Shown: in pieces, positions 471 through 44,211 of the stretch | Layout: the number at the start of each line of letters is the position of its first letter | Numbering within the stretch: position 1 is the stretch's first letter | Sequence record: PZ496580.1 | Source: a phage | Direction: 5' to 3' (one strand) | Length of the DNA: 64,000 bases | Notes under the pieces: generated by a model | Seen by the model: only the letters and a program-made list of their open reading frames with translations | Databases searched by the model: none | What the model was told of the DNA's origin: nothing | Made by a program: the position numbers and the translations under genes

Positions 471-2522
471 TTACATTTTAAATTTATCTGGCATTGCGTC
501 TACAGATACCAGATCAGCGATAAGCTGACGTAGAGTTGCCTTATCTGCTTTCTTACGTTCGGTTTTAGCTTCGGTAATGAAGCTGGAGAAAGAAAGGTCA
601 GAAGCAGGTTTAACAACACCTTCACGGATGAATGCATCACCGTCCGCGATCATCTCGCCAGATTCTTGTAATGCTGCCAGTTCATTTTTGTTCATAATAT
701 GTGCCTCAATGTAATAAGTTTCTTGTGAATCCGTTGATGCCGTAGCACGAGTTACCGTATCAAAGGATAACACAACACCGCGAGGAAGTAAAATCTCGCA
801 TTCTTTGTAAGCAAATGCCTTGTTACCTACTGGCAATACAGGGATGTTTTCCGCGCCAGCGATAGAGAAAGCAACATTAGCGCCACCTTCACCGCGAGAT
901 CCCGCCATAGAATCAACACCAGCAACGGCACTAGCCACGTTTGCATTCCACCCACCAAAAATATTAGGTGCAAGGGAAGTGCTCACATAGTTTTTAAAGT
1001 AAAACGCTTTTTGCTTACGTGCAGTTTCCCACATTTGAGACCGGAAGTCCATACCACGATACAGAATAGTACCAGGATCAAGTTTAACGCCATAGTTAGA
1101 GAAGGCATTATCCAGTGCATCACACATCTTGACCAATTCTTCTGGGTCTGCGATGCCATCAAACTCTTCCAGCTTACGATCGGTTAGGAAGTTGTTCATA
1201 TTGATGTATGCTGCATCGGCATATTCGCTCAACACAAAACCTTCCGCGCCAGGCAGGTCAAGATCAATATCTGCCATCATTTCACCCATGTTGCTAGCAA
1301 TTGCTTCAAACATACCGGAAGCAACATTACGCAGGGCATCGGTTTTAATCTGCGTGATGTGACTACGAAGCATTTCAGCTTTTACATCTGCTGGCATAGA
1401 CTGGTCTACTCGATCCATTGCTAAGGCAGTGATCTTGTTTTCGAATACTTCCTCGTTCATGATTTCTTTTAAGCGTTTGATTGATGCTGCGATAACTTCC
1501 GCAGACAACGGATCATATTGATCCTGAACTTTTACCAGTTCGCTTACTGCGTATTTTGCATCGGCCTCGCTTTCAAAAATAGTACGCATGAAACCATAGC
1601 GAGTGATAATATCACTTGTCCAATCATTCAGAGAACGCGCGGTTGAACGTTCTAAGGCTTGACGGTCAATCAGAGTATTAAACTGTTTCTTAGGTTCGGC
1701 TTCGGTGATATCTTCTTCCGGTTTAAGATTAATTTTTTCTGGATGATTCACATAGTCGCTGTTATAGGTCGCTTGAGTTTTCAGCATTTCTTCTTTAGTC
1801 AAACGAGATTTAGCCGCTACGCGTTGTTCTGCTTCCGCGTTTCGTTCTTCTTCTGACACAAGACTAGCCGCATACGCTTCATCTTTAGTCAGAGATTCGC
1901 CAGTAGCCTTAGATACCCAGCGATCACCTAAATCACTTTCTACTTTAGTGAACAAGGATTCATCAAGTTTAATCCCTTTAATCTTATCAATCGCCATCCC
2001 GCGACGTTTGACAACAACTAAAGCGATCTTTTTGCTGGTCATTACTTCCTGCTGGAATACTTCAAACTTCGGTGTACGACGCACCAAACGCTCTATAACG
2101 CGCTTAACCAGTTCGGTCTTACCTTTCATGCGGGATACGTTAAAACGGAACATAACAGCGTCTAATTGCGCTTTACGGGCTGTTTCCATAACCACATCAA
2201 AAGCACTTGCCATAACTGCAATCGGGTTATCGCCTAGACCATTTTTAAGCTGTACAATACGACCGCTTTTGTTCATTTCGCACAGTACAACATGTGCGGT
2301 CTTGTCACCCATACGAATGATTTTAGGTGTTTTGTTGGTGAAGTTACAAAGACGGACAATCACATCTTTATCGCGTGTCTGTACTGCAAAAAGCTGTTTA
2401 GGATTCTGCTTAGGCTTTAAGCACTGTACCGGGGCAATACTGCCAAAGTTTTCTTCCTCTTCTGTCAACAGCCATTTCTCGAAAGATTCAATCATTAGAT
2501 CGTCGATTTCTAAGTTAAACAT
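471..2522 (-). CDS. alt: Alt-like ADP-ribosyltransferase (virion-packaged RNAP-modifying enzyme)
   Basis: 683 aa (T4 Alt ~682 aa); C-terminal region has R (LYRGM), STS (YVSTSL) and ExE (KECEI) ART signature; sits after gene 30 as in T4. Confidence 0.7.
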   Translation of the reverse strand: MFNLEIDDLMIESFEKWLLTEEEENFGSIAPVQCLKPKQNPKQLFAVQTRDKDVIVRLCNFTNKTPKIIRMGDKTAHVVLCEMNKSGRIVQLKNGLGDNPIAVMASAFDVVMETARKAQLDAVMFRFNVSRMKGKTELVKRVIERLVRRTPKFEVFQQEVMTSKKIALVVVKRRGMAIDKIKGIKLDESLFTKVESDLGDRWVSKATGESLTKDEAYAASLVSEEERNAEAEQRVAAKSRLTKEEMLKTQATYNSDYVNHPEKINLKPEEDITEAEPKKQFNTLIDRQALERSTARSLNDWTSDIITRYGFMRTIFESEADAKYAVSELVKVQDQYDPLSAEVIAASIKRLKEIMNEEVFENKITALAMDRVDQSMPADVKAEMLRSHITQIKTDALRNVASGMFEAIASNMGEMMADIDLDLPGAEGFVLSEYADAAYINMNNFLTDRKLEEFDGIADPEELVKMCDALDNAFSNYGVKLDPGTILYRGMDFRSQMWETARKQKAFYFKNYVSTSLAPNIFGGWNANVASAVAGVDSMAGSRGEGGANVAFSIAGAENIPVLPVGNKAFAYKECEILLPRGVVLSFDTVTRATASTDSQETYYIEAHIMNKNELAALQESGEMIADGDAFIREGVVKPASDLSFSSFITEAKTERKKADKATLRQLIADLVSVDAMPDKFKM

Positions 2523-2837: not shown

Positions 2838-2866
2838 ATTATAGGGGATCACCGATCCCCTGTCAA
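2838..2866 (-). promoter_or_regulatory. sigma70-type early promoter cassette (PeSL-like)
   Basis: approx; TTGACA-17-TATAAT with palindromic spacer GGGGATCGGTGATCCCC, then conserved leader and SD. Confidence 0.6.
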
Positions 2867-5391: not shown

Positions 5392-5420
5392 ATTATAGGG
5401 GATCTCCCGATCCCCGTCAA
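5392..5420 (-). promoter_or_regulatory. sigma70-type early promoter cassette
   Basis: approx; TTGACG-17-TATAAT. Confidence 0.5.
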
Positions 5421-9147: not shown

Positions 9148-9176
9148 ATTATAGGGGATCACCGATCCCCTGTCAA
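9148..9176 (-). promoter_or_regulatory. sigma70-type early promoter cassette
   Basis: approx; TTGACA-17-TATAAT, spacer GGGGATCGGTGATCCCC identical to cassette at 2838..2866. Confidence 0.6.
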
Positions 9177-10295: not shown

Positions 10296-10324
10296 AGTAT
10301 AGGGGATCGGTGATCCCCTGTCAA
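10296..10324 (-). promoter_or_regulatory. sigma70-type early promoter cassette
   Basis: approx; TTGACA-17-TATACT; GGGGATCACCGATCCCC spacer. Confidence 0.5.
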
Positions 10325-16104: not shown

Positions 16105-17274
16105 TTACCAATCAATCTTATCAGCCGGAATCAGTTTCTTATAATTCCGTAGATAGTAAGTTTTCATTGAAGCCAGAATACGGTCATAATCAAGACCATC
16201 AAATGCAATCATCAGACACATGAAAATATATGCTTGTGCATCACCATGTTTACGTGATTCGATAGTCGCATTGGATGCATATGTCTTTCTGTCTTCTCCC
16301 GCGTGCGCGTTATAAAATTCTGTTGCTGTCGTAAAGGCATTGCGAAGAATGGACCTGAATGCTTCCTCGAATAGCTCGATTCGTTCCAGTGCTTCCGGTT
16401 CGCCTTCATATGCAGCACGCAAATCATCGGTTTCACTTTCTACGACATAGTAGATCAGGTTATTAGGAAACATCGATGTGTTTTTAATGTTATGCACACC
16501 AATATACCATTCACTCTTCACCTTGAACATTTGACCGTCTTTAGTGCGTGCAACAATTCCTTCGATACCTTCTGCGGTCCGAACTTCATCAAGAATATTG
16601 CTAAACCGCGCTGAATCAACCTGTAACGCGTTTACCAGATGAGGACGTAGGATTGCATCGGCGAATAGCATTTGATGCGGTACATACTCTCCTGTGACGT
16701 TATGGCGTACATTCAGAAGTGTTAGCGACGGTTCAGAATATTCTACAACAATTCGGTTGCTGGGTGCTGTATATTCAAAGTTGAAAGTATAATCAGATCC
16801 AATATCGGCGATCTTAGCGCGTAGATCCGCATACTTCTCGGAATACAGAAGACCGTTTGCTCTCTCTGCCTGGCTTGAGTACAAGGCCGCTTTAGACTTC
16901 AACTGAACATAGCCGTTATCAATGTATGTGCTTACTAGACTACCGTCCATTTTGTCCATGACCATTTCCACATCTTCCGGCTTAAAGCGAGCGCGATCAT
17001 TCTCACCTAAATTAAAAAACTTCTCCATAGGACGAGATGCAATGCGGACAGGTCGGTCTTTATCATCGATTTCAAACATGATCCCTCGACACTCTAACGC
17101 GTCTGGTTTATTCCACATTTCCGGTTTGCTCAAGTACAGATAACTAAAAATGCGCATACGGGTTTGCATCGCCGTAATTTCATCTTTGTAATAGAACGTA
17201 TCAGATCCGTTACATAGTGCCATCAGATTTTTGAACAATGCTAAAACTTTTTTGTTGTTTTCTTTTGTTGACAT
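16105..17274 (-). CDS. rnlA: RNA ligase 1
   Basis: 389 aa; ALECRGIMFE...PVRIASRPMEKFFNL...KMDGSLVSTY matches T4 Rnl1 including the catalytic Lys motif. Confidence 0.85.
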   Translation of the reverse strand: MSTKENNKKVLALFKNLMALCNGSDTFYYKDEITAMQTRMRIFSYLYLSKPEMWNKPDALECRGIMFEIDDKDRPVRIASRPMEKFFNLGENDRARFKPEDVEMVMDKMDGSLVSTYIDNGYVQLKSKAALYSSQAERANGLLYSEKYADLRAKIADIGSDYTFNFEYTAPSNRIVVEYSEPSLTLLNVRHNVTGEYVPHQMLFADAILRPHLVNALQVDSARFSNILDEVRTAEGIEGIVARTKDGQMFKVKSEWYIGVHNIKNTSMFPNNLIYYVVESETDDLRAAYEGEPEALERIELFEEAFRSILRNAFTTATEFYNAHAGEDRKTYASNATIESRKHGDAQAYIFMCLMIAFDGLDYDRILASMKTYYLRNYKKLIPADKIDW

Positions 17275-17671
17275 AATTTGTGTTCCATTCTGGTTTAAAT
17301 TTGGTGATCAAAACAGGTTCTTCGATATCGGCAGTGCTTATAATATCCTTACCCGTTGGATTCTCGATGTACAACTCAAAGCACTGGCGGTAATAGAATG
17401 TTACTGTCTTACCTTCCTCTAGCGCCTTATGAATATTCTTACTCTTGCGAGTATCCGCCGTTGGTGTTTGTCTGTTAATGCTAGTCCGGTAATAATTGAT
17501 CCGCTTTCTGAGATTAACAGTCTGACCAATGTATACCAGTTCATCATCAACCGCAATAGCGTAAAGAACATTTAAACGGTTCTTCTGAGGCGGTAGAATC
17601 ACATCACCATCTTTACACTCTAAACATGAATATTTAACGAATCCATAGTTTTCTATTAGCTCATTAATCAT
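17210..17671 (-). CDS. denA: GIY-YIG endonuclease II
   Basis: 153 aa; NVLYAIAVDDELVYIGQT..NLRKRINYYRT matches T4 DenA GIY-YIG core; C-terminus overlaps rnlA start. Confidence 0.7.
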   Translation of the reverse strand: MINELIENYGFVKYSCLECKDGDVILPPQKNRLNVLYAIAVDDELVYIGQTVNLRKRINYYRTSINRQTPTADTRKSKNIHKALEEGKTVTFYYRQCFELYIENPTGKDIISTADIEEPVLITKFKPEWNTNYVNKRKQQKSFSIVQKSDGTM

Positions 17672-17696
17672 TATCCTTTCCTCACGTCACAACAAA

Positions 17697-17716
17697 GGCG
17701 GGATTTCTCCCGCCCG
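17697..17716 (-). terminator. intrinsic terminator
   Basis: approx; GGCGGGA-loop-TCCCGCC then TTTGTTGT on minus strand. Confidence 0.4.
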
Positions 17717-17721
17717 CCTTA

Positions 17722-18120
17722 TTAACTTTCCAGAATATCTCGAGCTTCGTTACGCTCCTTGATGATTTTCAGGACAAATTCCAGTTTTTCTTTGTTCAGT
17801 GTTCCGTTTTCCATTGCTTCTTTGACGGTAAACACTCCGCCACCTTGCCCGTATACAGTGACAGTGATTTCACCTAACATCGTGGTATGAAAACCGCCAA
17901 TTTTCGGTGATTCGAAAGAAACAATTACCTCGCGGACAGTATTACCGTCGTTGATTTCTGAGAGGGTAATGTCGTTTTTGTAGGCGGTTGCTTTAACCAT
18001 ACGGATCAGCATAGTCTGATCTGGGGAGATGGTCATTTTGTCCATTGCATGTTGCAATGCAGCGTAACCGAAAACTTTAACGAAGTCCAGAACGTCTTTG
18101 CGAGTTTGAAATTTAATCAT
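17722..18120 (-). CDS. hypothetical protein (132 aa)
   Basis: ORF track; TAAGGAG SD. Confidence 0.45.
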   Translation of the reverse strand: MIKFQTRKDVLDFVKVFGYAALQHAMDKMTISPDQTMLIRMVKATAYKNDITLSEINDGNTVREVIVSFESPKIGGFHTTMLGEITVTVYGQGGGVFTVKEAMENGTLNKEKLEFVLKIIKERNEARDILES

Positions 18121-18190: not shown

Positions 18191-18409
18191 CTACTTTTTA
18201 ATGACAAGTTCGAATTTTGCTACCTTACGTCCTCGTTTATTGAAAGCAACCCACGGACGGTTTTCAATGTAGAACAATTCTTCACCAATAATGAATACTG
18301 GCTGATTGTAAAGGCGACCCATCAGGTCACGCTGGCGAATGGTAGTAGATTCGTATACTTCGCCTACTACAAAGTGTTTGCTGATAGAGTCGGTGCAGAT
18401 AAATTTCAT
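18191..18409 (-). CDS. hypothetical protein, MK..C small-protein family
   Basis: 72 aa MKFICTDSI...; related ORFs at 20787..20954 and 45516..45722. Confidence 0.45.
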   Translation of the reverse strand: MKFICTDSISKHFVVGEVYESTTIRQRDLMGRLYNQPVFIIGEELFYIENRPWVAFNKRGRKVAKFELVIKK

Positions 18410-18797: not shown

Positions 18798-19274
18798 TTA
18801 ATCATGACCGTGATTTGCAATATCCGCTCGCGTCTTATCTTTGTGATTTCCTACGTCAAAGACACGATAACCATTTTCACGCAAAACTTTAATCACTTCT
18901 GGGTTATCCTCAAAGACTCCCACCACTTCATCTTTATCAAAGGATTTAATTACCTCTAATTTGATGTGATAGTCTTTACGAGAATCGGTACGGCCTCTCA
19001 TAAAGATTTTATCAAAACACACCCCGTTAGAAATTAACCAATCAATTGTTTCCATGTAAGCATGTGAACTTCGTCCGGTGAGGATGTAAATCAAATGCCC
19101 GTTGTCGGAAAGAGCATTAATAACACGAATTACATCGTAAATGGGGGAATCTCCCCCACATGCCTTGTTATATTCGATCCATGACTCGACTTTATCAAGA
19201 TTTTCGGTTGGCATCTTTGCTAGTCGATGTGTTGGATCTGTGATCGTAAAATCTAAATCGACAAAATATATCAT
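18798..19274 (-). CDS. HAD-superfamily phosphatase
   Basis: 158 aa; N-terminal DLDFT (DxDxT) motif and GNHKD-type downstream motifs. Confidence 0.5.
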   Translation of the reverse strand: MIYFVDLDFTITDPTHRLAKMPTENLDKVESWIEYNKACGGDSPIYDVIRVINALSDNGHLIYILTGRSSHAYMETIDWLISNGVCFDKIFMRGRTDSRKDYHIKLEVIKSFDKDEVVGVFEDNPEVIKVLRENGYRVFDVGNHKDKTRADIANHGHD

Positions 19275-20431
19275 AGATATTTCCCGAATCGGTTGTAGTC
19301 ATCGTCTGTTAAATCGGTATTAACCTGAGATACCAGATACATGATCTCTACTTCTTGCGCCGCGTTTTGAACTTCGTCAGAGTTTAACCACTTACGCATC
19401 CACGGTAAAGGATGACGACGAACACTAAACGGGCTTTTCAGTCCGGCAGCACGCATACGGGAATCTGCCAAATATTCTACATAGGTTTTCAGAATTTCCG
19501 GTGATAGGTTAGGAATTGCCCCCATTGCGAATAGGTGGTCTACCCATTCTTTTTCTTGCTCGACAACATCCAGAAAGATTTTCGTTGCTTCGTCTTCAAG
19601 TTCTTCCGCAATCTGTTTCCACTCATCACCATCAGCCCCCGTTTGCCATTGACGAATAATGTATTGTGTGCCTTTTAAGTGAAGTTGTTCATCACGCGCA
19701 ATAAATTTCATGATCTTCGCGTTACCTTCCAGTAAACCACGTTCGGCAAAGCTGAAAGTACATGCAAAGGACACATAAAAACGGATTGCTTCCAGTGCAT
19801 TAACGCAGTGTGCACACAGATAAATCGAAGCCATCAGATCTCGTTTTGTATCTTCAAAAAATCTTCTTGCATCATCTAATGCTGTCTGGTCGTCTCGTTC
19901 TTCCCAATAGCGGAGATCTTCTTTTGCATTCTCATACTTACGAATCCAATAGAGAACATCATCATAATATTGCCCGATAGATTCCGCTCGCTTCATGATA
20001 GCAGGGTTATCGATGATCTGGTCAAACTCACTAGCCGGATCAATGAAACAGTTACGCATGATGTGTGTATAGCTTCGGCTATGAATCGTTTCGCTGAATG
20101 TCCATGTTTGCAACCATGTATCAAGAGTTGGATCAGATACAATTGGACCAAATGCTGCGGACGGTGCGCGACCTTGAATAGAATCAAGTAATGTCTGATA
20201 CTTCAAGTTTTCTGTAAAGAAACGTTTTTCAACATCGCCCATATTCAGATATTGAATGCGGTCGGTTGCAAGTGAAATCTCTTCTGGACGCCAGAAAAAT
20301 GACAATTGCTTTTCGATCAGTTCTTCAAATACTTGATGACGCTGAATATCATAGCGAGCGATACCCAACCCACTACCCAGAAACATCGGTTCGTTCATAA
20401 TATCAACATGTTCGCGGTTAAATACGCTCAT
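19271..20431 (-). CDS. nrdB: ribonucleotide reductase beta subunit
   Basis: 386 aa (T4 NrdB ~388); ferritin-like fold motifs; ORF uninterrupted (no intron). Confidence 0.85.
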   Translation of the reverse strand: MSVFNREHVDIMNEPMFLGSGLGIARYDIQRHQVFEELIEKQLSFFWRPEEISLATDRIQYLNMGDVEKRFFTENLKYQTLLDSIQGRAPSAAFGPIVSDPTLDTWLQTWTFSETIHSRSYTHIMRNCFIDPASEFDQIIDNPAIMKRAESIGQYYDDVLYWIRKYENAKEDLRYWEERDDQTALDDARRFFEDTKRDLMASIYLCAHCVNALEAIRFYVSFACTFSFAERGLLEGNAKIMKFIARDEQLHLKGTQYIIRQWQTGADGDEWKQIAEELEDEATKIFLDVVEQEKEWVDHLFAMGAIPNLSPEILKTYVEYLADSRMRAAGLKSPFSVRRHPLPWMRKWLNSDEVQNAAQEVEIMYLVSQVNTDLTDDDYNRFGKYL

Positions 20432-20446
20432 TAATTCACCTCACTA

Positions 20447-20614
20447 TCACTTTTTAACACAAAAGAACTTAGTATTTCTGTTTATTTCGTTATCCTGTTG
20501 CAATTCCTGCACGGCTTCAAAACAACTTTGATGTGATGAAAACTCCACGCTGGTAACAGTTCCTTTATTATATGATCCTACGCTAACGGAAAGCAATAAC
20601 CATATTGTAGCCAT
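20447..20614 (-). CDS. hypothetical small hydrophobic-N-terminus protein (55 aa)
   Basis: MATIWLLLSVSVGSYNKG...; TAATG coupling to upstream paralog; below ORF-track cutoff. Confidence 0.35.
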   Translation of the reverse strand: MATIWLLLSVSVGSYNKGTVTSVEFSSHQSCFEAVQELQQDNEINRNTKFFCVKK

Positions 20615-20787
20615 TAGTTCACCTTCTGCTTTTCAATGCAATACAGATTCATAAAGCGTTTATTGTCTTCGCGGATAATCTCGCGAGCTTTAACGCAATC
20701 CTGCTTTGTTGCAAATTCAATGCTTGACATATTTCCGTAATTATACATTGAATTGCTTATTGCAATCAATAACCATACAGTAGCCAT
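20614..20787 (-). CDS. hypothetical small hydrophobic-N-terminus protein (57 aa)
   Basis: MATVWLLIAISNSMYNYG...; TAATG coupling with gene above; paralog of 20447..20614. Confidence 0.35.
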   Translation of the reverse strand: MATVWLLIAISNSMYNYGNMSSIEFATKQDCVKAREIIREDNKRFMNLYCIEKQKVN

Positions 20788-20954
20788 TATCCGACAACCT
20801 CAAAACATTTATCATCAGGAAGAATAGCCCATTCTACGCCGTATTCATCCTCAACGTAGTAGCAAGTCCCATCATGTCGAGCATCATATACATCACCGAC
20901 AACAAAGCTATCAGCTAGTTCAAAATCTACAGCAACACATTTTAATTTGGTCAT
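20787..20954 (-). CDS. hypothetical protein, MK..C small-protein family
   Basis: track ORF trimmed to MTKLKCVAVDF (promoter sits in the discarded part). Confidence 0.4.
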   Translation of the reverse strand: MTKLKCVAVDFELADSFVVGDVYDARHDGTCYYVEDEYGVEWAILPDDKCFEVVG

Positions 20955-20985
20955 AATAAAATCCTCACTTGTTTTTGATGGTTGA

Positions 20986-21014
20986 ATTATAGCGGGGATT
21001 TCTCCCCGCGTCAA
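20986..21014 (-). promoter_or_regulatory. sigma70-type early promoter with hairpin in spacer
   Basis: approx; TTGACG-17-TATAAT, spacer GCGGGGAGAAATCCCCGC doubles as terminator-like hairpin after nrdA. Confidence 0.5.
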
Positions 21015-21022
21015 CACTTATT

Positions 21023-23266
21023 TTACAGTTTACAAGATGAACATTCACTAGAGTCTTCCGTACCATCAGCACCATCACGCACGTTAGCGTAATACAGTGT
21101 CTTGAGGCCGTAATATTGAGCAAACAACATATCATCTAATACATCAGCAATATCGACTTTACCAGTCTTATAAGTGCTTGGATCATAGGATGTGTTGGAA
21201 CTAATCGCCTGATCTACAAACTTCTGCATGATCGCTGCCAGTGTCAGATAAGGCTTGTTACCTTTCTTGATCAGTGTCCAAAGCAGGTCAATAACATCAG
21301 CATTATTCTCTACGTTCGGAATAACCTGATTAAATTGCCCTTCTTTCGATCCTTTAACCGATACAATCCCGCGAGGCGGTTCAATACCGTTTGTGCTGTT
21401 AGATACCTGAGAAGACGACTCACAAGGCATCAGAGCCGAAAGCGTACTGTTACGAATGCCATATTTTTTCAGGTCTTCGCGCAGTTCCTCCCAATCCATC
21501 TCATACACCGGATCAACCAGTTCATCTACTGTCTTTTTGTACCAGTCGATAGGAAGTTCACCGCGACCATAACGTGTTTCGTGCATCAGTTCGCAAGCAC
21601 CCTTCTCTTTAGCCAGTTGCACACTAGCCTTAATCAGAGCATATTGCAAGCGTTCAAACGTTTTATGCGTAAACTCGTTAGCGTCTTCATATGTGAAGAA
21701 ATTATCCGCGAGATACGATGCAAAGTTAGTCACACCAACACCCAGAGATCGACGTTTTTTGGCTGTCAGAGCTTGTTCTACAGGATAATCCTGGTAATCT
21801 AACAAGTTGTCAAGTGCACGCACCATAACCATAGCAATGCGTTCTACTTCTTCCATATTTTCGATATCGAAATTACCTAAAACATATGCTGCCAAAGTAC
21901 ATAGGCTGATCTCTGAATCATCACGACCCATCGGTTTAGTAGGCAGTGCAATTTCACAACACAGGTTAGATTGTTTAATCGGTGCTACATTACGAATAAA
22001 CGCCCCGTGATTGTTCATGTTGTCTGTGAACGCTGGATAGATTCGACCAGTGTTAAAACGTTCAATTGCCACCGCTAAAAACAGGTCTTCGGCTTTAACA
22101 CGAGTTTTACGAACACTCGGATCTTTTTCCAGTTTTTCGTAAAGCTGGCGGAAACCTTCCTCATCTCGGAAGTACAGATCCCACAACAAGCCACCTGCAA
22201 CATCTGGACTAAACAGAGTAATGTAATCCCGTTTAAGGAATCGCTCTACCATCAGGTTATTAATCTGTACGCCGTAATCAAGATGGCGAATGCGGTTATC
22301 TTCTACCCCTTTGTTGTTCTTCAACACAATAAGACTTTCAAACTCTAAATGCCACATTGGGTAATAGAGAGTCGCCGCCCCGCCACGAATACCGCCTTGT
22401 GAGCATGACTTAACGGCAGTCTGAAAATGTTTCCAGAATGGGATAACGCCAGTATGACGAACTTCACCATGCCCGATCTTAGATCCTTCCGCGCGAATCA
22501 TGCCAGCGTTGATACCGATGCCAGCACGCTTACTAATATACTTGATGATTGCATTTGCTGTTTCGTTGATGCCCTGCAATGAGTCATCAGATTCGATCAC
22601 CACACACGAACTAAATTGGCGTGTTGGAGTACGCACACCAGCCATAATCGGAGTAGGAAGAGAAATTTGCTTATTAGCAACAGCATTATAAAAATCAATC
22701 ACATGTTCAAGTCGATTTTCTGTCTCTTCTTGATGTAAACACATACCGATCAGCATATACGCAAATTGCGGTGTTTCGATGATTTTCTTAGTGCTGCGAT
22801 CCTGAACAAGATATTTCTCTTTTAATTGCATCGCACCAGCATAGGTCATTTTAAAATCAAGTTTATGATCGATGAATTTCTCCAGATATTCCACTTCTTC
22901 ACGGGAATACTTTTGCAGAATTTCACGATCATATTTTCCGGTTGCAATATTACGCTCAATGTGGCTATAAAAATCAATAGGTTGGAATTGACCGTATACT
23001 GATTTACGAAGCGCGAACATTGCAAGGTTACTTGCTACATATTGATAATCTGGTGTTTCTACAGTAATGTTATCTGCTGCGACCTTAATCAATACTTTCT
23101 GGATATCATTGGTAGACATACCTTCTGTCAGAAGTGGTTCAACCATATCAAACAATTCATATGGATCAACGTTATGACCTTCGGCTGCCGCTTCCAGAAT
23201 TTTCATTACTTTTTCTTTTTCAAACGGAACAGTCAGACCGGAAGACTTAACAACATTTTTAATCAT
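21023..23266 (-). CDS. nrdA: ribonucleotide reductase alpha subunit
   Basis: 747 aa (T4 NrdA ~754); ATP-cone N-terminus, catalytic NLCCEI and C-terminal CSSCKL-type tail. Confidence 0.9.
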   Translation of the reverse strand: MIKNVVKSSGLTVPFEKEKVMKILEAAAEGHNVDPYELFDMVEPLLTEGMSTNDIQKVLIKVAADNITVETPDYQYVASNLAMFALRKSVYGQFQPIDFYSHIERNIATGKYDREILQKYSREEVEYLEKFIDHKLDFKMTYAGAMQLKEKYLVQDRSTKKIIETPQFAYMLIGMCLHQEETENRLEHVIDFYNAVANKQISLPTPIMAGVRTPTRQFSSCVVIESDDSLQGINETANAIIKYISKRAGIGINAGMIRAEGSKIGHGEVRHTGVIPFWKHFQTAVKSCSQGGIRGGAATLYYPMWHLEFESLIVLKNNKGVEDNRIRHLDYGVQINNLMVERFLKRDYITLFSPDVAGGLLWDLYFRDEEGFRQLYEKLEKDPSVRKTRVKAEDLFLAVAIERFNTGRIYPAFTDNMNNHGAFIRNVAPIKQSNLCCEIALPTKPMGRDDSEISLCTLAAYVLGNFDIENMEEVERIAMVMVRALDNLLDYQDYPVEQALTAKKRRSLGVGVTNFASYLADNFFTYEDANEFTHKTFERLQYALIKASVQLAKEKGACELMHETRYGRGELPIDWYKKTVDELVDPVYEMDWEELREDLKKYGIRNSTLSALMPCESSSQVSNSTNGIEPPRGIVSVKGSKEGQFNQVIPNVENNADVIDLLWTLIKKGNKPYLTLAAIMQKFVDQAISSNTSYDPSTYKTGKVDIADVLDDMLFAQYYGLKTLYYANVRDGADGTEDSSECSSCKL

Positions 23267-23334: not shown

Positions 23335-24567
23335 TTATACTGCCATTTGAGCGGTGATTGCTGGATGGCTTTGATAGTTGTGAATTTTAAAGTCTTTCGG
23401 AGTCTTTGTCAATACCTCATCTAAAGATTTAAATTCCGGCAACTCGATTGTTGGTTTATCAAACGGAACACGGCTTAACTGTTCCATAACTTGATCAAAA
23501 TGGTTTTTGTAAATGTGAGTATCTCCACCAGAGAAAATCAGTTCTCCTACCTCAAGATCACACATTTTCGCTATGATGTGAGTTAACAGCGCATAGCTGG
23601 CAACATTAAAGGGCAAGCCCAAAAAGCTGTCTACGCTTCGCTGAAACCACATACAAGACAGTTTACCTTCATTGACATAGAATTGTACGAACGGATGACA
23701 TACACCCAATACAGCATTATGTGTTCCTTGTACGTTCCATGAGTCAATGATGATACGTCGATCCGTTGGATTGTTTTTAATTTGTTCAATCACGTTTTGT
23801 AACTGGTCTTCCCAAATCTTCGGGCGATAGACATATTCTTCATCGTCTTTAGTGCTCGATGTGTCTACGTCCATACTAGCAAAGATCGTGGTATCTGGCG
23901 CTAAAATATCCCCGCCCAGATAATCACTATCAAGCAGATAACCGAAATAACCATCATCTACCCATTCCTGGAATCCCCACAAGCAATATGCATCATTAAC
24001 AAAATTAGATTGAGTCTTCCAGTGGTCTGCTACTAAGAATAGATTATATTCAGAATCAAACTCTTCATAACGCATACCACGCCAGATAGCACATAAACGG
24101 TCTTCTGTTTCATTGGTTGGCGTAAAGTCTTCTACCCACGGGTGCTTAAATGTATGTGTATATTTGCTCTTAACGCGCTTAATTTTGATTTCACCGTGTG
24201 GATGAATCGGTTTGCGTCGCCACGCCATACCATACATATTGCCGACATTATAACCATTGAATCGCAAAGGATTCTTTTCTTTCATATCAAGACAGTTGCC
24301 GCGCCAAATGTCGAAGGCTTCTTCGTCAAACTGACCGCGTGTAATTTCCTGTAAGCGACGGCGGTCAAGTGATCCCTCCATAAACCATAGCAACTCGCCA
24401 ATTACAGAGGCTGTAGCCATCTTTTTAGTGGTCAGTAATGGGAAACCCTTGTTTAAATCGATTCGCATCTCTGCGCCGAATTTAGAGAGCGTACCTACCC
24501 CCGTGCGGTCTTCACGAGGCCAGCCATTATCAAGAACATCACGCAACAGTTTCAAATATTCTTTCAT
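23335..24567 (-). CDS. td: thymidylate synthase with large internal insertion
   Basis: 410 aa; ThyA motifs (DRTGVGT, CHPFVQFYV, GLPFNVASYALL, GGDTHIYKNH) flank a ~130-aa in-frame insert after the YGMAWR segment. Confidence 0.8.
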   Translation of the reverse strand: MKEYLKLLRDVLDNGWPREDRTGVGTLSKFGAEMRIDLNKGFPLLTTKKMATASVIGELLWFMEGSLDRRRLQEITRGQFDEEAFDIWRGNCLDMKEKNPLRFNGYNVGNMYGMAWRRKPIHPHGEIKIKRVKSKYTHTFKHPWVEDFTPTNETEDRLCAIWRGMRYEEFDSEYNLFLVADHWKTQSNFVNDAYCLWGFQEWVDDGYFGYLLDSDYLGGDILAPDTTIFASMDVDTSSTKDDEEYVYRPKIWEDQLQNVIEQIKNNPTDRRIIIDSWNVQGTHNAVLGVCHPFVQFYVNEGKLSCMWFQRSVDSFLGLPFNVASYALLTHIIAKMCDLEVGELIFSGGDTHIYKNHFDQVMEQLSRVPFDKPTIELPEFKSLDEVLTKTPKDFKIHNYQSHPAITAQMAV

Positions 24568-44182: not shown

Positions 44183-44211
44183 ATTATAGGGGATCTGCGA
44201 TCCCCTGTCAA
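44183..44211 (-). promoter_or_regulatory. sigma70-type early promoter cassette
   Basis: approx; TTGACA-17-TATAAT, GGGGATCGCAGATCCCC spacer. Confidence 0.55.

Follow-up and report, generated by a model that had tools for sequence, protein, structure and literature searches.

Three small genes behind a promoter stem-loop in the nrdA-nrdB spacer of an RB49-like phage

What does a T4-type phage keep between the genes for the two subunits of its ribonucleotide reductase? In T4 the nrdA/nrdB spacer carries mobE, a free-standing HNH homing endonuclease gene (PMC2988022). Here we study the same spacer in a stretch of DNA of 64 kb (the window), which belongs to Krischvirus, the RB49-like T4-type coliphages, and is 95-99% identical to other genomes of this genus. 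A sequence-only reading of the window had stated, correctly, that T4 has a mobile endonuclease gene at this place. For the present phage it had described a promoter with a hairpin and three abutting ORFs, two of them tandem paralogs.

All features of the locus lie on the minus strand. The upstream border of the spacer is nrdA (21023..23266), a 747-aa ORF that codes for the large subunit of a class Ia ribonucleotide reductase and bears the name nrdA in the annotations of RB49 and related phages. The downstream border is nrdB (19271..20431), the small subunit gene, identified from the sequence, the ORF list and the RB49 annotation. The stop codon of nrdA, TAA, is followed by AATAAGTG, a promoter-early stem-loop (PeSL, 20986..21014), the Shine-Dalgarno sequence GAGGA (20966..20962) and, 7 nt after this, the ATG of ORF1 (20787..20954; 55 aa, MTKLKC...). 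Then come ORF2 (20614..20787; 57 aa, MATVWLLIAIS...) and ORF3 (20447..20614; 55 aa, MATIWLLLSVS...). The three ORFs are equivalent to RB49p233, RB49p232 and RB49p231, and profile matches place them in phrog_16302 (E = 1.1e-41), phrog_5579 (E = 2e-23) and again phrog_5579 (E = 7.6e-25), respectively. Both the ORF1/ORF2 and the ORF2/ORF3 junctions are TAATG overlaps, and these are kept in 15 out of 15 related spacers examined. From the stop of ORF3 to the start of nrdB there are 16 nt, and because the Shine-Dalgarno sequence of nrdB (GAGGTGA) lies within them there is no room for a separate nrdB promoter. The anatomy that had been described is thereby borne out by the sequence and the ORF list.

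Are such short frames really genes? All three are under purifying selection, with a pN/pS of 0.185 for ORF1, 0.060 for ORF2 and 0.218 for ORF3. The variable sites are distributed 19/10/45 over the three codon positions (chi-square p = 1.5e-6), and none of the 15 spacers has a broken ORF2 or ORF3. The sequence-only reading had suggested that its ORFs be compared with the same spacer in relatives; since the reading frames are conserved there, both by pN/pS and by codon-position bias, it withstood that comparison. That the ORFs are open by chance only, and that the spacer serves instead as regulatory RNA or DNA, is hardly credible. It is true that three sequenced isolates have a disrupted ORF1, and that searches of Pfam, NCBIfam and PDB sequences gave no significant match to a known domain for any of the three ORFs. 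However, a pN/pS far below 1 for every ORF and the unbroken ORF2 and ORF3 argue against chance, as do the confident AlphaFold2 models and a protein family of 70 representatives with invariant residues, while no Rfam match (E <= 1) speaks for a structured RNA in the spacer.

Public records agree with this. RB49p231, p232 and p233 are annotated as hypothetical proteins in more than 50 genomes, and ORF2 and ORF3 are present in a plain ORF scan as well as in these records. The three small genes are real and were annotated long ago. They are not among the novel ORFs of RB49 listed by Nolan et al. 2006, and a literature search found no transcriptome or ribosome-profiling paper on Krischvirus.

The promoter at the head of the ORFs consists of a -35 hexamer, TTGACG (21014..21009), and a -10 hexamer, TATAAT (20991..20986), separated by the 17-nt spacer CGGGGAGAAATCCCCGC; 11 out of 12 positions agree with the consensus. 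Between the hexamers lies the hairpin, with the arms GCGGGGA (21009..21003) and TCCCCGC (20998..20992) around the loop GAAA (21002..20999). Its stem is 7 bp long, and the folding energy of the 56-nt context is -17.2 kcal/mol (z = -4.1). PeSLs were described from the ORFan cassettes of RB49 and phi1 by Arbiol et al. 2010 (PMC2839356) and Comeau et al. 2014 (PMC4122927), including a subclass with the stem-loop between -35 and -10 (PMC2839356). Judged by its sequence, the promoter-hairpin studied here is a member of this class, already described in 2010. The main texts of the two papers mention neither this PeSL, nor ORFs 231-233, nor nrdA/nrdB.

In general, this type of promoter is common in the window: the PeSL promoter pattern has 33 matches where 2.5 are expected, a 13-fold enrichment, and several further PeSLs are found on the same strand. 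The stem at nrdA (GCGGGGA-GAAA-TCCCCGC) is of another sequence than the AGGGGATC...GATCCCCT type, which is the commoner one in the window. In the spacer itself there is only one other promoter-like match (10/12), located inside ORF2; promoter-like sites in the scanned region number 19, against 19.3 expected from shuffled sequence.

The annotation of this element differs between records, as it is a promoter in GEC-3S and a terminator in Ec_Makalu_003. A U-tract is absent 3' of the hairpin, and a terminator scan did not call it. The hexamers suggest that the element would be used as a sigma-70 promoter, and the hairpin between them may in addition attenuate read-through from nrdA.

The PeSL is highly conserved. 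Its hairpin is kept in 15/15 Krischvirus spacers, and 14 of them share the full 29-mer without a change. The same 29-mer is found in the metagenomic lineage L005 (about 75% identical), where it precedes a single-copy gene of the ORF2/ORF3 family. Further, the spacer has taken up other genes in relatives. In phage Delraymugoa a methyltransferase cassette has a PeSL copy on either side, the two differing by 1 nt, and in SSG23 a homing endonuclease gene is inserted between ORF3 and nrdB. The location of the ORFs would accordingly be well described as a PeSL-marked hot spot for insertion and recombination in T4-type genomes. ORF1-ORF3 were also considered as a homing endonuclease, the counterpart of mobE, and this was rejected: neither an HNH nor a GIY-YIG nuclease domain was matched in Pfam, PHROG or NCBIfam.

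By sequence comparison, ORF2 and ORF3 are tandem duplicates from a widespread family of phage mini-proteins. They are 38% identical to each other (pairwise E = 1e-16), and the window holds no paralog beyond the pair, the next match having E = 0.59. Both match phrog_5579 over their full length (profile positions 1-52 of 52). A profile search finds at least 70 diverged representatives at E <= 1e-3, with lengths of 52-65 aa, and 57 of the 66 family members that were collected match phrog_5579. In these 66 sequences C31 and C50 are invariant, and L7, G18 and F25 nearly so. Of the two paralogs ORF3 is the closer counterpart of P0018, the single-copy protein of lineage L005, to which it is 51% identical without gaps.

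Elsewhere, in many phages, the genes of this family are found among clustered small early genes or within modules for replication and DNA metabolism. How far the family is seen depends on the search. With ORF2 as query, tblastn against cultured phages matched Krischvirus only, and short queries of this kind have low power; divergent family members used as queries gave weak matches in Acinetobacter and Pantoea phages. IMG/VR searches with subsets of the family returned Krischvirus and one distant contig only. The family alignment has no conserved stretch of 7-10 residues, and there is no Pfam model for the family.

Next, the structure of these proteins bears on where they may act. ORF2 is modelled by AlphaFold2 with a pLDDT of 91.1, as a beta-beta-alpha-beta arrangement in which the strands cover residues 5-11, 20-25 and 46-52 and the helix covers 28-41. 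A Foldseek search of the PDB with this model returned no characterised relative (best E = 0.9), and matches in BFVD are to uncharacterised phage proteins only.

From the letters, ORF2 and ORF3 had been proposed to be small peptides that are secreted or anchored in the membrane, the N-terminus being a signal peptide or a transmembrane segment. The apolar starts MATVWLLIAIS and MATIWLLLSVS, together with the small residues behind the apolar stretch (SNS and SVG), fit such a role, and the two invariant cysteines would suit a periplasmic disulfide. Two invariant cysteines are commoner in exported, disulfide-stabilised proteins or in metal sites than in a plain cytoplasmic scaffold. However, the apolar run at the N-termini is 5-7 residues long. 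When hydropathy is averaged over 19 residues on the Kyte-Doolittle scale, the maxima of the two paralogs are 0.61 and 0.85 and the median of the family (n=66) is 0.91, while the usual membrane threshold of 1.6 is reached in 2 of the 66 members. The n-region of both paralogs is M-A-T, without lysine or arginine, and likewise 55 of the 66 members have neither residue before the apolar run. Few parts of the family are as well conserved as the N-terminal segment (W5, L6, L7, S11), which sets it apart from signal peptides, and AlphaFold2 builds this segment, at a pLDDT of about 90, into a compact three-stranded sheet as strand 1. Hydropathy, n-region charge, conservation and the model all go against a signal peptide or a membrane helix, and export is a very unlikely role for these proteins. 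The hydrophobic starts resemble a beta-strand buried in a soluble mini-protein and not an export signal, and the two proteins would then presumably reside in the cytoplasm.

ORF1 is a different protein. It is strongly acidic, with 13 D/E against 4 K/R and a net charge of about -9. AlphaFold2 predicts five strands in an SH3-like barrel with a pLDDT of 90, although only 2 of the 5 models are confident and the alignment is shallow. In the PDB it is structurally closest to SH3 domains (E about 0.1, TM about 0.6). ORF1 is thus like the SH3-like small beta-barrels in its predicted five-strand barrel, but the structural matches are not significant (E >= 0.1) and it has no sequence similarity to them, so the resemblance is one of fold only. 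The sole weak match in Pfam and NCBIfam is to DUF7244, with 16 bits against a cut-off of 27.

Homologs of ORF1 are found only in Krischvirus, and not all of them are intact: the gene is frameshifted in kaaroe and FL04, and in ELT3 its codon 12 is a nonsense codon. In GEC-3S it carries an in-frame duplication of 21 nt. ORF1 is specific to Krischvirus and, because it is broken in three isolates, dispensable for the phage. Its placement in an intragenomic 'MK..C' family had to be given up, as the best non-self ORF match in the window has E = 0.47, that is, there is no significant paralog within it; with the 72-aa ORF at 18191..18409 it shares just a 13-residue patch. Overall, the anatomy, the comparison with mobE and the conservation of the frames survive from the sequence-only reading, while the membrane or secreted peptides and the 'MK..C' family do not.

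What, then, are the three genes for? The explanation that we prefer, with a probability of roughly 0.6, is that the genes form an early transcription unit with a PeSL at its head, from which this RB49-like phage makes soluble accessory mini-proteins together with NrdB. From the sigma-70-type promoter of the PeSL, an mRNA would run over ORF1, ORF2, ORF3 and nrdB. The three ORFs would be translated from it, and the TAATG overlaps may permit coupling by termination and reinitiation. ORF2 and ORF3 would fold as soluble cytoplasmic beta-beta-alpha-beta domains, with the N-terminus as the first strand of the core, and ORF1 would add an unrelated, acidic, Krischvirus-specific small beta-barrel that can be lost. 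The most likely role of the small proteins is taken to be that of soluble early accessory proteins co-transcribed with nrdB. For ORF2 and ORF3 the function is most likely of a binding type, by analogy with other early phage proteins of 50-60 aa; the argument is one of analogy because Foldseek gave no characterised structural relative. The partner could be a host or phage protein, bound during takeover or in DNA metabolism, and the proteins possibly form homo- or heterodimers.

It is also conceivable, and on present evidence unlikely, that the small proteins are inhibitors in counter-defence or host takeover, with ORF1 as a DNA-mimic-like decoy and ORF2 and ORF3 as inhibitors of a host enzyme. 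The early-promoter context is in line with this. So are the acidity of ORF1 and its variable presence and breakage among isolates, as expected of an accessory gene for host range. One family member is located beside genes for Lar restriction alleviation and a methylase, and the fold of ORF2 weakly resembles that of p56, a phage inhibitor of uracil-DNA glycosylase (TM about 0.5, E = 2.8, not significant). On the other hand, no protein or family known from anti-defence is matched significantly, acidity by itself is weak evidence, and pN/pS within the genus is purifying and not diversifying. Inhibitors of this kind would be a more specific version of the early accessory unit.

The position of ORF3 directly before nrdB raises a second possibility, namely that the ORF2/ORF3 family is an accessory of nucleotide metabolism or of ribonucleotide reductase (RNR), with the cysteine pair serving redox chemistry or a metal, for instance as a Cys4 site across a dimer. 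A family gene is found directly upstream of nrdB in three lineages, Krischvirus, L005 and L026, whose NrdB identities are 81% for L005 and 92% for L026. Further, an unrelated contig has the gene order thyX, one ORF, family gene, one ORF, nrdA, nrdB. Given the fixed place before nrdB and this contig, a link to nucleotide metabolism is conceivable, and the invariance of the cysteines in 66 sequences and a presumed shared mRNA with nrdB would fit it.

Several observations weigh against such a link. In the three Krischvirus-like lineages the synteny was inherited from a common ancestor, so that they do not count as independent cases, and in about ten other contexts of the family there is no RNR gene nearby. 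The family is 47-51% identical where NrdB is 81% identical, so its rate of evolution is about three times that of NrdB. A CxxC motif is absent, as C31 and C50 stand 19 residues apart, and searches of Pfam, NCBIfam and the PDB returned nothing similar to NrdH, NrdI, YfaE-type or thioredoxin-fold proteins. An RNR accessory is therefore a long shot. A redoxin of the thioredoxin, glutaredoxin or NrdH type was rejected for ORF2 and ORF3 on the missing CxxC, the beta-beta-alpha-beta fold and the lack of a Pfam or PDB match. In a broader form, to which we give little credence, the PHROG 5579 proteins could be small, so far unrecognised partners of phage enzymes in nucleotide metabolism, such as a redox or metal accessory of class Ia RNR; this would account for the copy before nrdB in three diverged lineages and for the thyX-nrdA-nrdB neighbourhood.

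Compared with these alternatives, the early accessory unit is an ordinary explanation of an observation that is itself ordinary and largely known already. The genes have been on record as hypothetical-protein genes since the RB49 genome was published, and the class of promoter hairpin has been described, so the change for the field is small. What is gained is a correction of the secreted-peptide reading and a further clear-cut case in which a PeSL serves as an insertion site for cassettes, here with a core gene on either side. In addition, a family is defined: about 55-65 residues, a predicted beta-beta-alpha-beta fold, two invariant cysteines, and a place in early or DNA-metabolism modules. 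PHROG 5579 could be included at little cost in screens for the function of small phage proteins. Should it be true that the family works with ribonucleotide reductase, the interest would be moderate.

Finally, the locus can be set beside known systems. Like PHROG 5579 and the neighbouring PHROG 3766, ORF2 and ORF3 are phage proteins of unassigned function, and their match to the former is full-length. The PHROG 5579 entry has no function attached, so that membership names the family without explaining it; the fold, the cysteine pair and the genomic contexts are added here.

With T4 mobE the ORFs share the nrdA/nrdB intergenic position, as accessory cargo in an insertion-tolerant spacer, and a stop/start overlap that suggests translational coupling. 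An endonuclease gene does occur at this place in the relative SSG23. In contrast to mobE, ORF1-ORF3 are 55-57 aa long, with neither a nuclease domain nor similarity to MobE. They also have a promoter of their own, whereas T4 mobE depends on promoters upstream of nrdA (PMC2988022).

The closest likeness in layout is to the PeSLs of RB49 and phi1, phages of the same genus. There, as here, a sigma-70 consensus promoter has a stem-loop of a G-tract and a C-tract between -35 and -10, the element lies in an AT-rich stretch right behind the stop codon of the upstream gene, and a Shine-Dalgarno sequence and small ORFs annotated without function follow downstream. As in the known cases, an indel of a gene cassette in a relative has a PeSL copy at either end. 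Unlike them, the present PeSL lies between the core genes nrdA and nrdB and not in a large hyperplastic region.

On the minus strand of the window, 8 AT-rich bases separate the stop codon of nrdA (23266..21023) from a promoter-hairpin, TTGACG-CGGGGAGAAATCCCCGC-TATAAT (21014..20986), after which come a Shine-Dalgarno sequence GAGGA (20966..20962), three small ORFs and nrdB (20431..19271). ORF1 (55 aa, 20954..20787), ORF2 (57 aa, 20787..20614) and ORF3 (55 aa, 20614..20447) are joined by TAATG overlaps, and the 16-nt gap between ORF3 and nrdB contains no element other than GAGGTGA, the Shine-Dalgarno sequence of nrdB. All of these features were placed from the sequence and the ORF list. Coordinates and description in the sequence-only reading were exact, as judged by reading the sequence, promoter matching and hairpin folding. 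Among phage records, 40 share 95-99% identity with the 851-nt region and another 19 share 90-95%; every one of them is a Krischvirus, RB49, phi1, JSE, GEC-3S, ECD7 and Brandy included. The RB49 equivalents of the ORFs (RB49p233, RB49p232 and RB49p231) are annotated as hypothetical proteins, and the ORFs are likewise annotated in nearly all Krischvirus relatives. The thymidylate synthase ORF on the same strand (23335..24567) is 410 aa long, and its counterpart in the metagenomic lineage L005 has 412 aa. Both are well over the usual 265-290 aa or so, and the ORF in the window may therefore hold a large insertion within it.

The reading frames, whose conservation in relatives had been put forward as a check, are kept in an alignment of 15 Krischvirus spacers. 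Both TAATG overlaps are found in all 15, and ORF2 and ORF3 are intact in each. Pooled pairwise pN/pS is 0.185 for ORF1, 0.060 for ORF2 and 0.218 for ORF3, and the variable columns of the three ORFs sum to 19/10/45 over the codon positions (p = 1.5e-6). ORF1 is altered in several isolates: a 1-nt insertion within a T-run shifts the frame in kaaroe and FL04 (being in a homopolymer, this shift may reflect a sequencing error), codon 12 changes from GAA to the nonsense codon TAA in ELT3, and GEC-3S carries an in-frame tandem duplication of 21 nt. Truncated ORF1 products are also present in metagenomes. On this evidence ORF1 is a genuine gene, but one that the phage can do without. Going by these substitution patterns, ORF1-ORF3 are real conserved genes, and that they are non-genes is extremely improbable.

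ORF1 matches phrog_16302 (E = 1e-41), and homology searches found no homologs outside Krischvirus. It is acidic, with 13 D/E against 4 K/R. From a shallow alignment AlphaFold2 predicts a five-strand barrel (pLDDT 90, two of five models confident), for which the nearest PDB structures are SH3 domains at a non-significant E of about 0.1. Its proposed membership in an "MK..C" family found no statistical support when it was compared with other ORFs of the window.

With its 17-nt spacer, the promoter agrees with the consensus at 11 of 12 positions; its hairpin, a 7-bp stem closed by a GAAA loop, is much more stable than shuffled sequence (-17.2 kcal/mol, z = -4.1). It belongs to the promoter-early stem-loops (PeSLs) known from RB49 and phi1, in which a sigma-70 consensus promoter and a G/C-tract stem-loop lie 3' of an upstream stop codon and precede a Shine-Dalgarno sequence and small ORFans (PMC2839356; PMC4122927). 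For a few PeSLs promoter and terminator activity have been demonstrated experimentally, and PeSLs are recombination sites in cassette shuffling (PMC2839356; PMC4122927). The hairpin is kept in all 15 aligned spacers and the full 29-nt element is identical in 14; the -10 of Ec_Makalu_003 is TATACT. The window contains 33 promoter-like matches, 13-fold over expectation, with 31 on the minus strand. Several further PeSLs lie on this strand, such as the near-identical ones of a commoner type, TTGACAGGGGATC....GATCCCCTATAAT, at 2838..2866, 5392..5420, 9148..9176, 10296..10324 and 44183..44211. A second minus-strand hairpin of the same style, GGGCGGGA-GAAA-TCCCGCC with a T-rich tail (17696..17715), lies directly downstream of the ORF at 17722..18120 and was scored as terminator-like.

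ORF2 and ORF3 are tandem paralogs (38% identity, E = 1e-16), and each aligns to the whole of phrog_5579. When 1.84 billion representatives were scanned in full with HMMER, 70 proteins, nearly all of 52-65 aa, matched this family at E <= 1e-3. Across an alignment of 66 sequences C31 and C50 never vary, L7, G18 and F25 hardly do, and the consensus is xxWLLIxxSxGxYNxGxVTxxExF...C...C(V/I). Every named member is called a hypothetical protein, and searches of Pfam, NCBIfam and PDB sequences gave no meaningful match. One 44-aa protein on a 6.3-kb metagenome contig (P0017) joins the N-terminal 30 residues of ORF2 to the C-terminal 14 of ORF3, which looks like the outcome of a recombinational deletion between the paralogs.

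The hydrophobic N-termini of the paralogs had suggested small membrane or secreted peptides. However, only 7 residues of ORF2 and 5 of ORF3 form the strictly apolar run. Kyte-Doolittle means over 19 residues peak at 0.61 and 0.85 (family median 0.91, at least 1.6 in only 2 of 66), and 55 of the 66 members have no K/R ahead of the run. This segment is among the most conserved parts of the family, while signal peptides show the opposite pattern. Further, in an AlphaFold2 model of ORF2 built with the 66 sequences (pLDDT 91.1, pTM 0.73; strands 5-11, 20-25 and 46-52, helix 28-41) the hydrophobic N-terminus supplies the first strand of a three-stranded sheet, a confidently predicted soluble fold. 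Both a Sec signal peptide and a membrane helix were rejected on these grounds. As disulfides are typical of exported proteins, the invariant cysteine pair leaves a small doubt, and export or membrane insertion is a slim chance. Foldseek found no significant relative of the fold in the PDB (best PII-like SbtB and PsaD, E about 1), and its BFVD matches were small proteins from phages of many groups, all of them uncharacterised.

The cysteine pair could instead make the family a partner of ribonucleotide reductase or nucleotide metabolism. A family gene lies directly upstream of nrdB in three Krischvirus-like lineages. Outside this clade the only association with ribonucleotide reductase genes among the contexts found is on an unrelated phage contig (L032, 4070..9488) with thyX, a 92-aa ORF, a 63-aa family member, a 131-aa ORF, an intein-containing nrdA, and nrdB. 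Elsewhere members occur in arrays of small hypothetical genes (Acinetobacter phage Ab3-TPeters, Pantoea phage Kyle, contigs L027 and L035), beside the genes of a DnaB-type helicase and DNA polymerase A, at the start of a replication or recombination operon, within a nin-like region, and in a temperate-phage region with methylase, Lar and integrase. The gene neighbourhoods thus point to early or DNA-metabolism modules, not specifically to ribonucleotide reductase, and we consider a dedicated partner of this kind improbable.

In Krischvirus proper nrdB is preceded by ORF1 and two family copies. In lineage L005 (DNA about 75%, NrdB 81% identical) an identical PeSL is followed by no ORF1 and by a single copy, whose identity is 51% with ORF3 and 47% with ORF2. 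On contig L026 NrdB is 92% and the family member only about 40% identical, and the latter is TAATG-coupled to an upstream ORF as in Krischvirus. Between lineages the small proteins therefore diverge much faster than NrdB, despite purifying selection within Krischvirus.

By such comparisons the spacer is also an insertion site. In Escherichia phage Delraymugoa two PeSL copies (L002, 630..665 and 1527..1562, differing by one base, GCGGGG vs GAGGGG) bracket a DNA-methyltransferase gene between nrdA and ORF1, a textbook PeSL-mediated cassette insertion. In Shigella phage SSG23 a gene annotated as homing endonuclease (L003, 1247..1921) lies between the ORF3 stop and nrdB, right after the old nrdB Shine-Dalgarno sequence, so mobile endonucleases do enter this spacer, as they have in T4. 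As the sequence-only reading had said, the T4 spacer carries a mobile endonuclease gene; it is the HNH homing-endonuclease gene mobE (PMC2988022). In L005 and L006, both of the metagenomic lineage, nrdA forms two ORFs divided by a gene of 237 aa whose I-HmuI/NUMOD-like match is faint (L005 1753..4940), an arrangement like that in Aeromonas phage Aeh1, where mobE splits nrdA (PMC2988022). In the window, a 153-aa minus-strand ORF (17210..17671) contains ...LVYIGQT...LRKR...YYR..., to the eye similar to a GIY-YIG homing-endonuclease motif.

We consider a PeSL-headed early unit of real, conserved accessory genes the best reading, at a probability of roughly 0.6. The PeSL would start an early mRNA spanning ORF1, ORF2, ORF3 and nrdB, since there is no room or signal for a separate nrdB promoter, and its hairpin would dampen read-through from nrdA. 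The TAATG overlaps may couple translation of the small ORFs, whose products would be cytoplasmic accessory proteins that bind other proteins. A more specific role as anti-defence or takeover inhibitors is unlikely. For this accessory unit, the analysis adds the rejection of secretion, a clear PeSL-flanked cassette between two core genes, and the description of an uncharacterised two-cysteine mini-protein family without a Pfam entry. The ORFs and the regulatory element had been annotated or described before, and the region is typical accessory cargo of T4-type phages.
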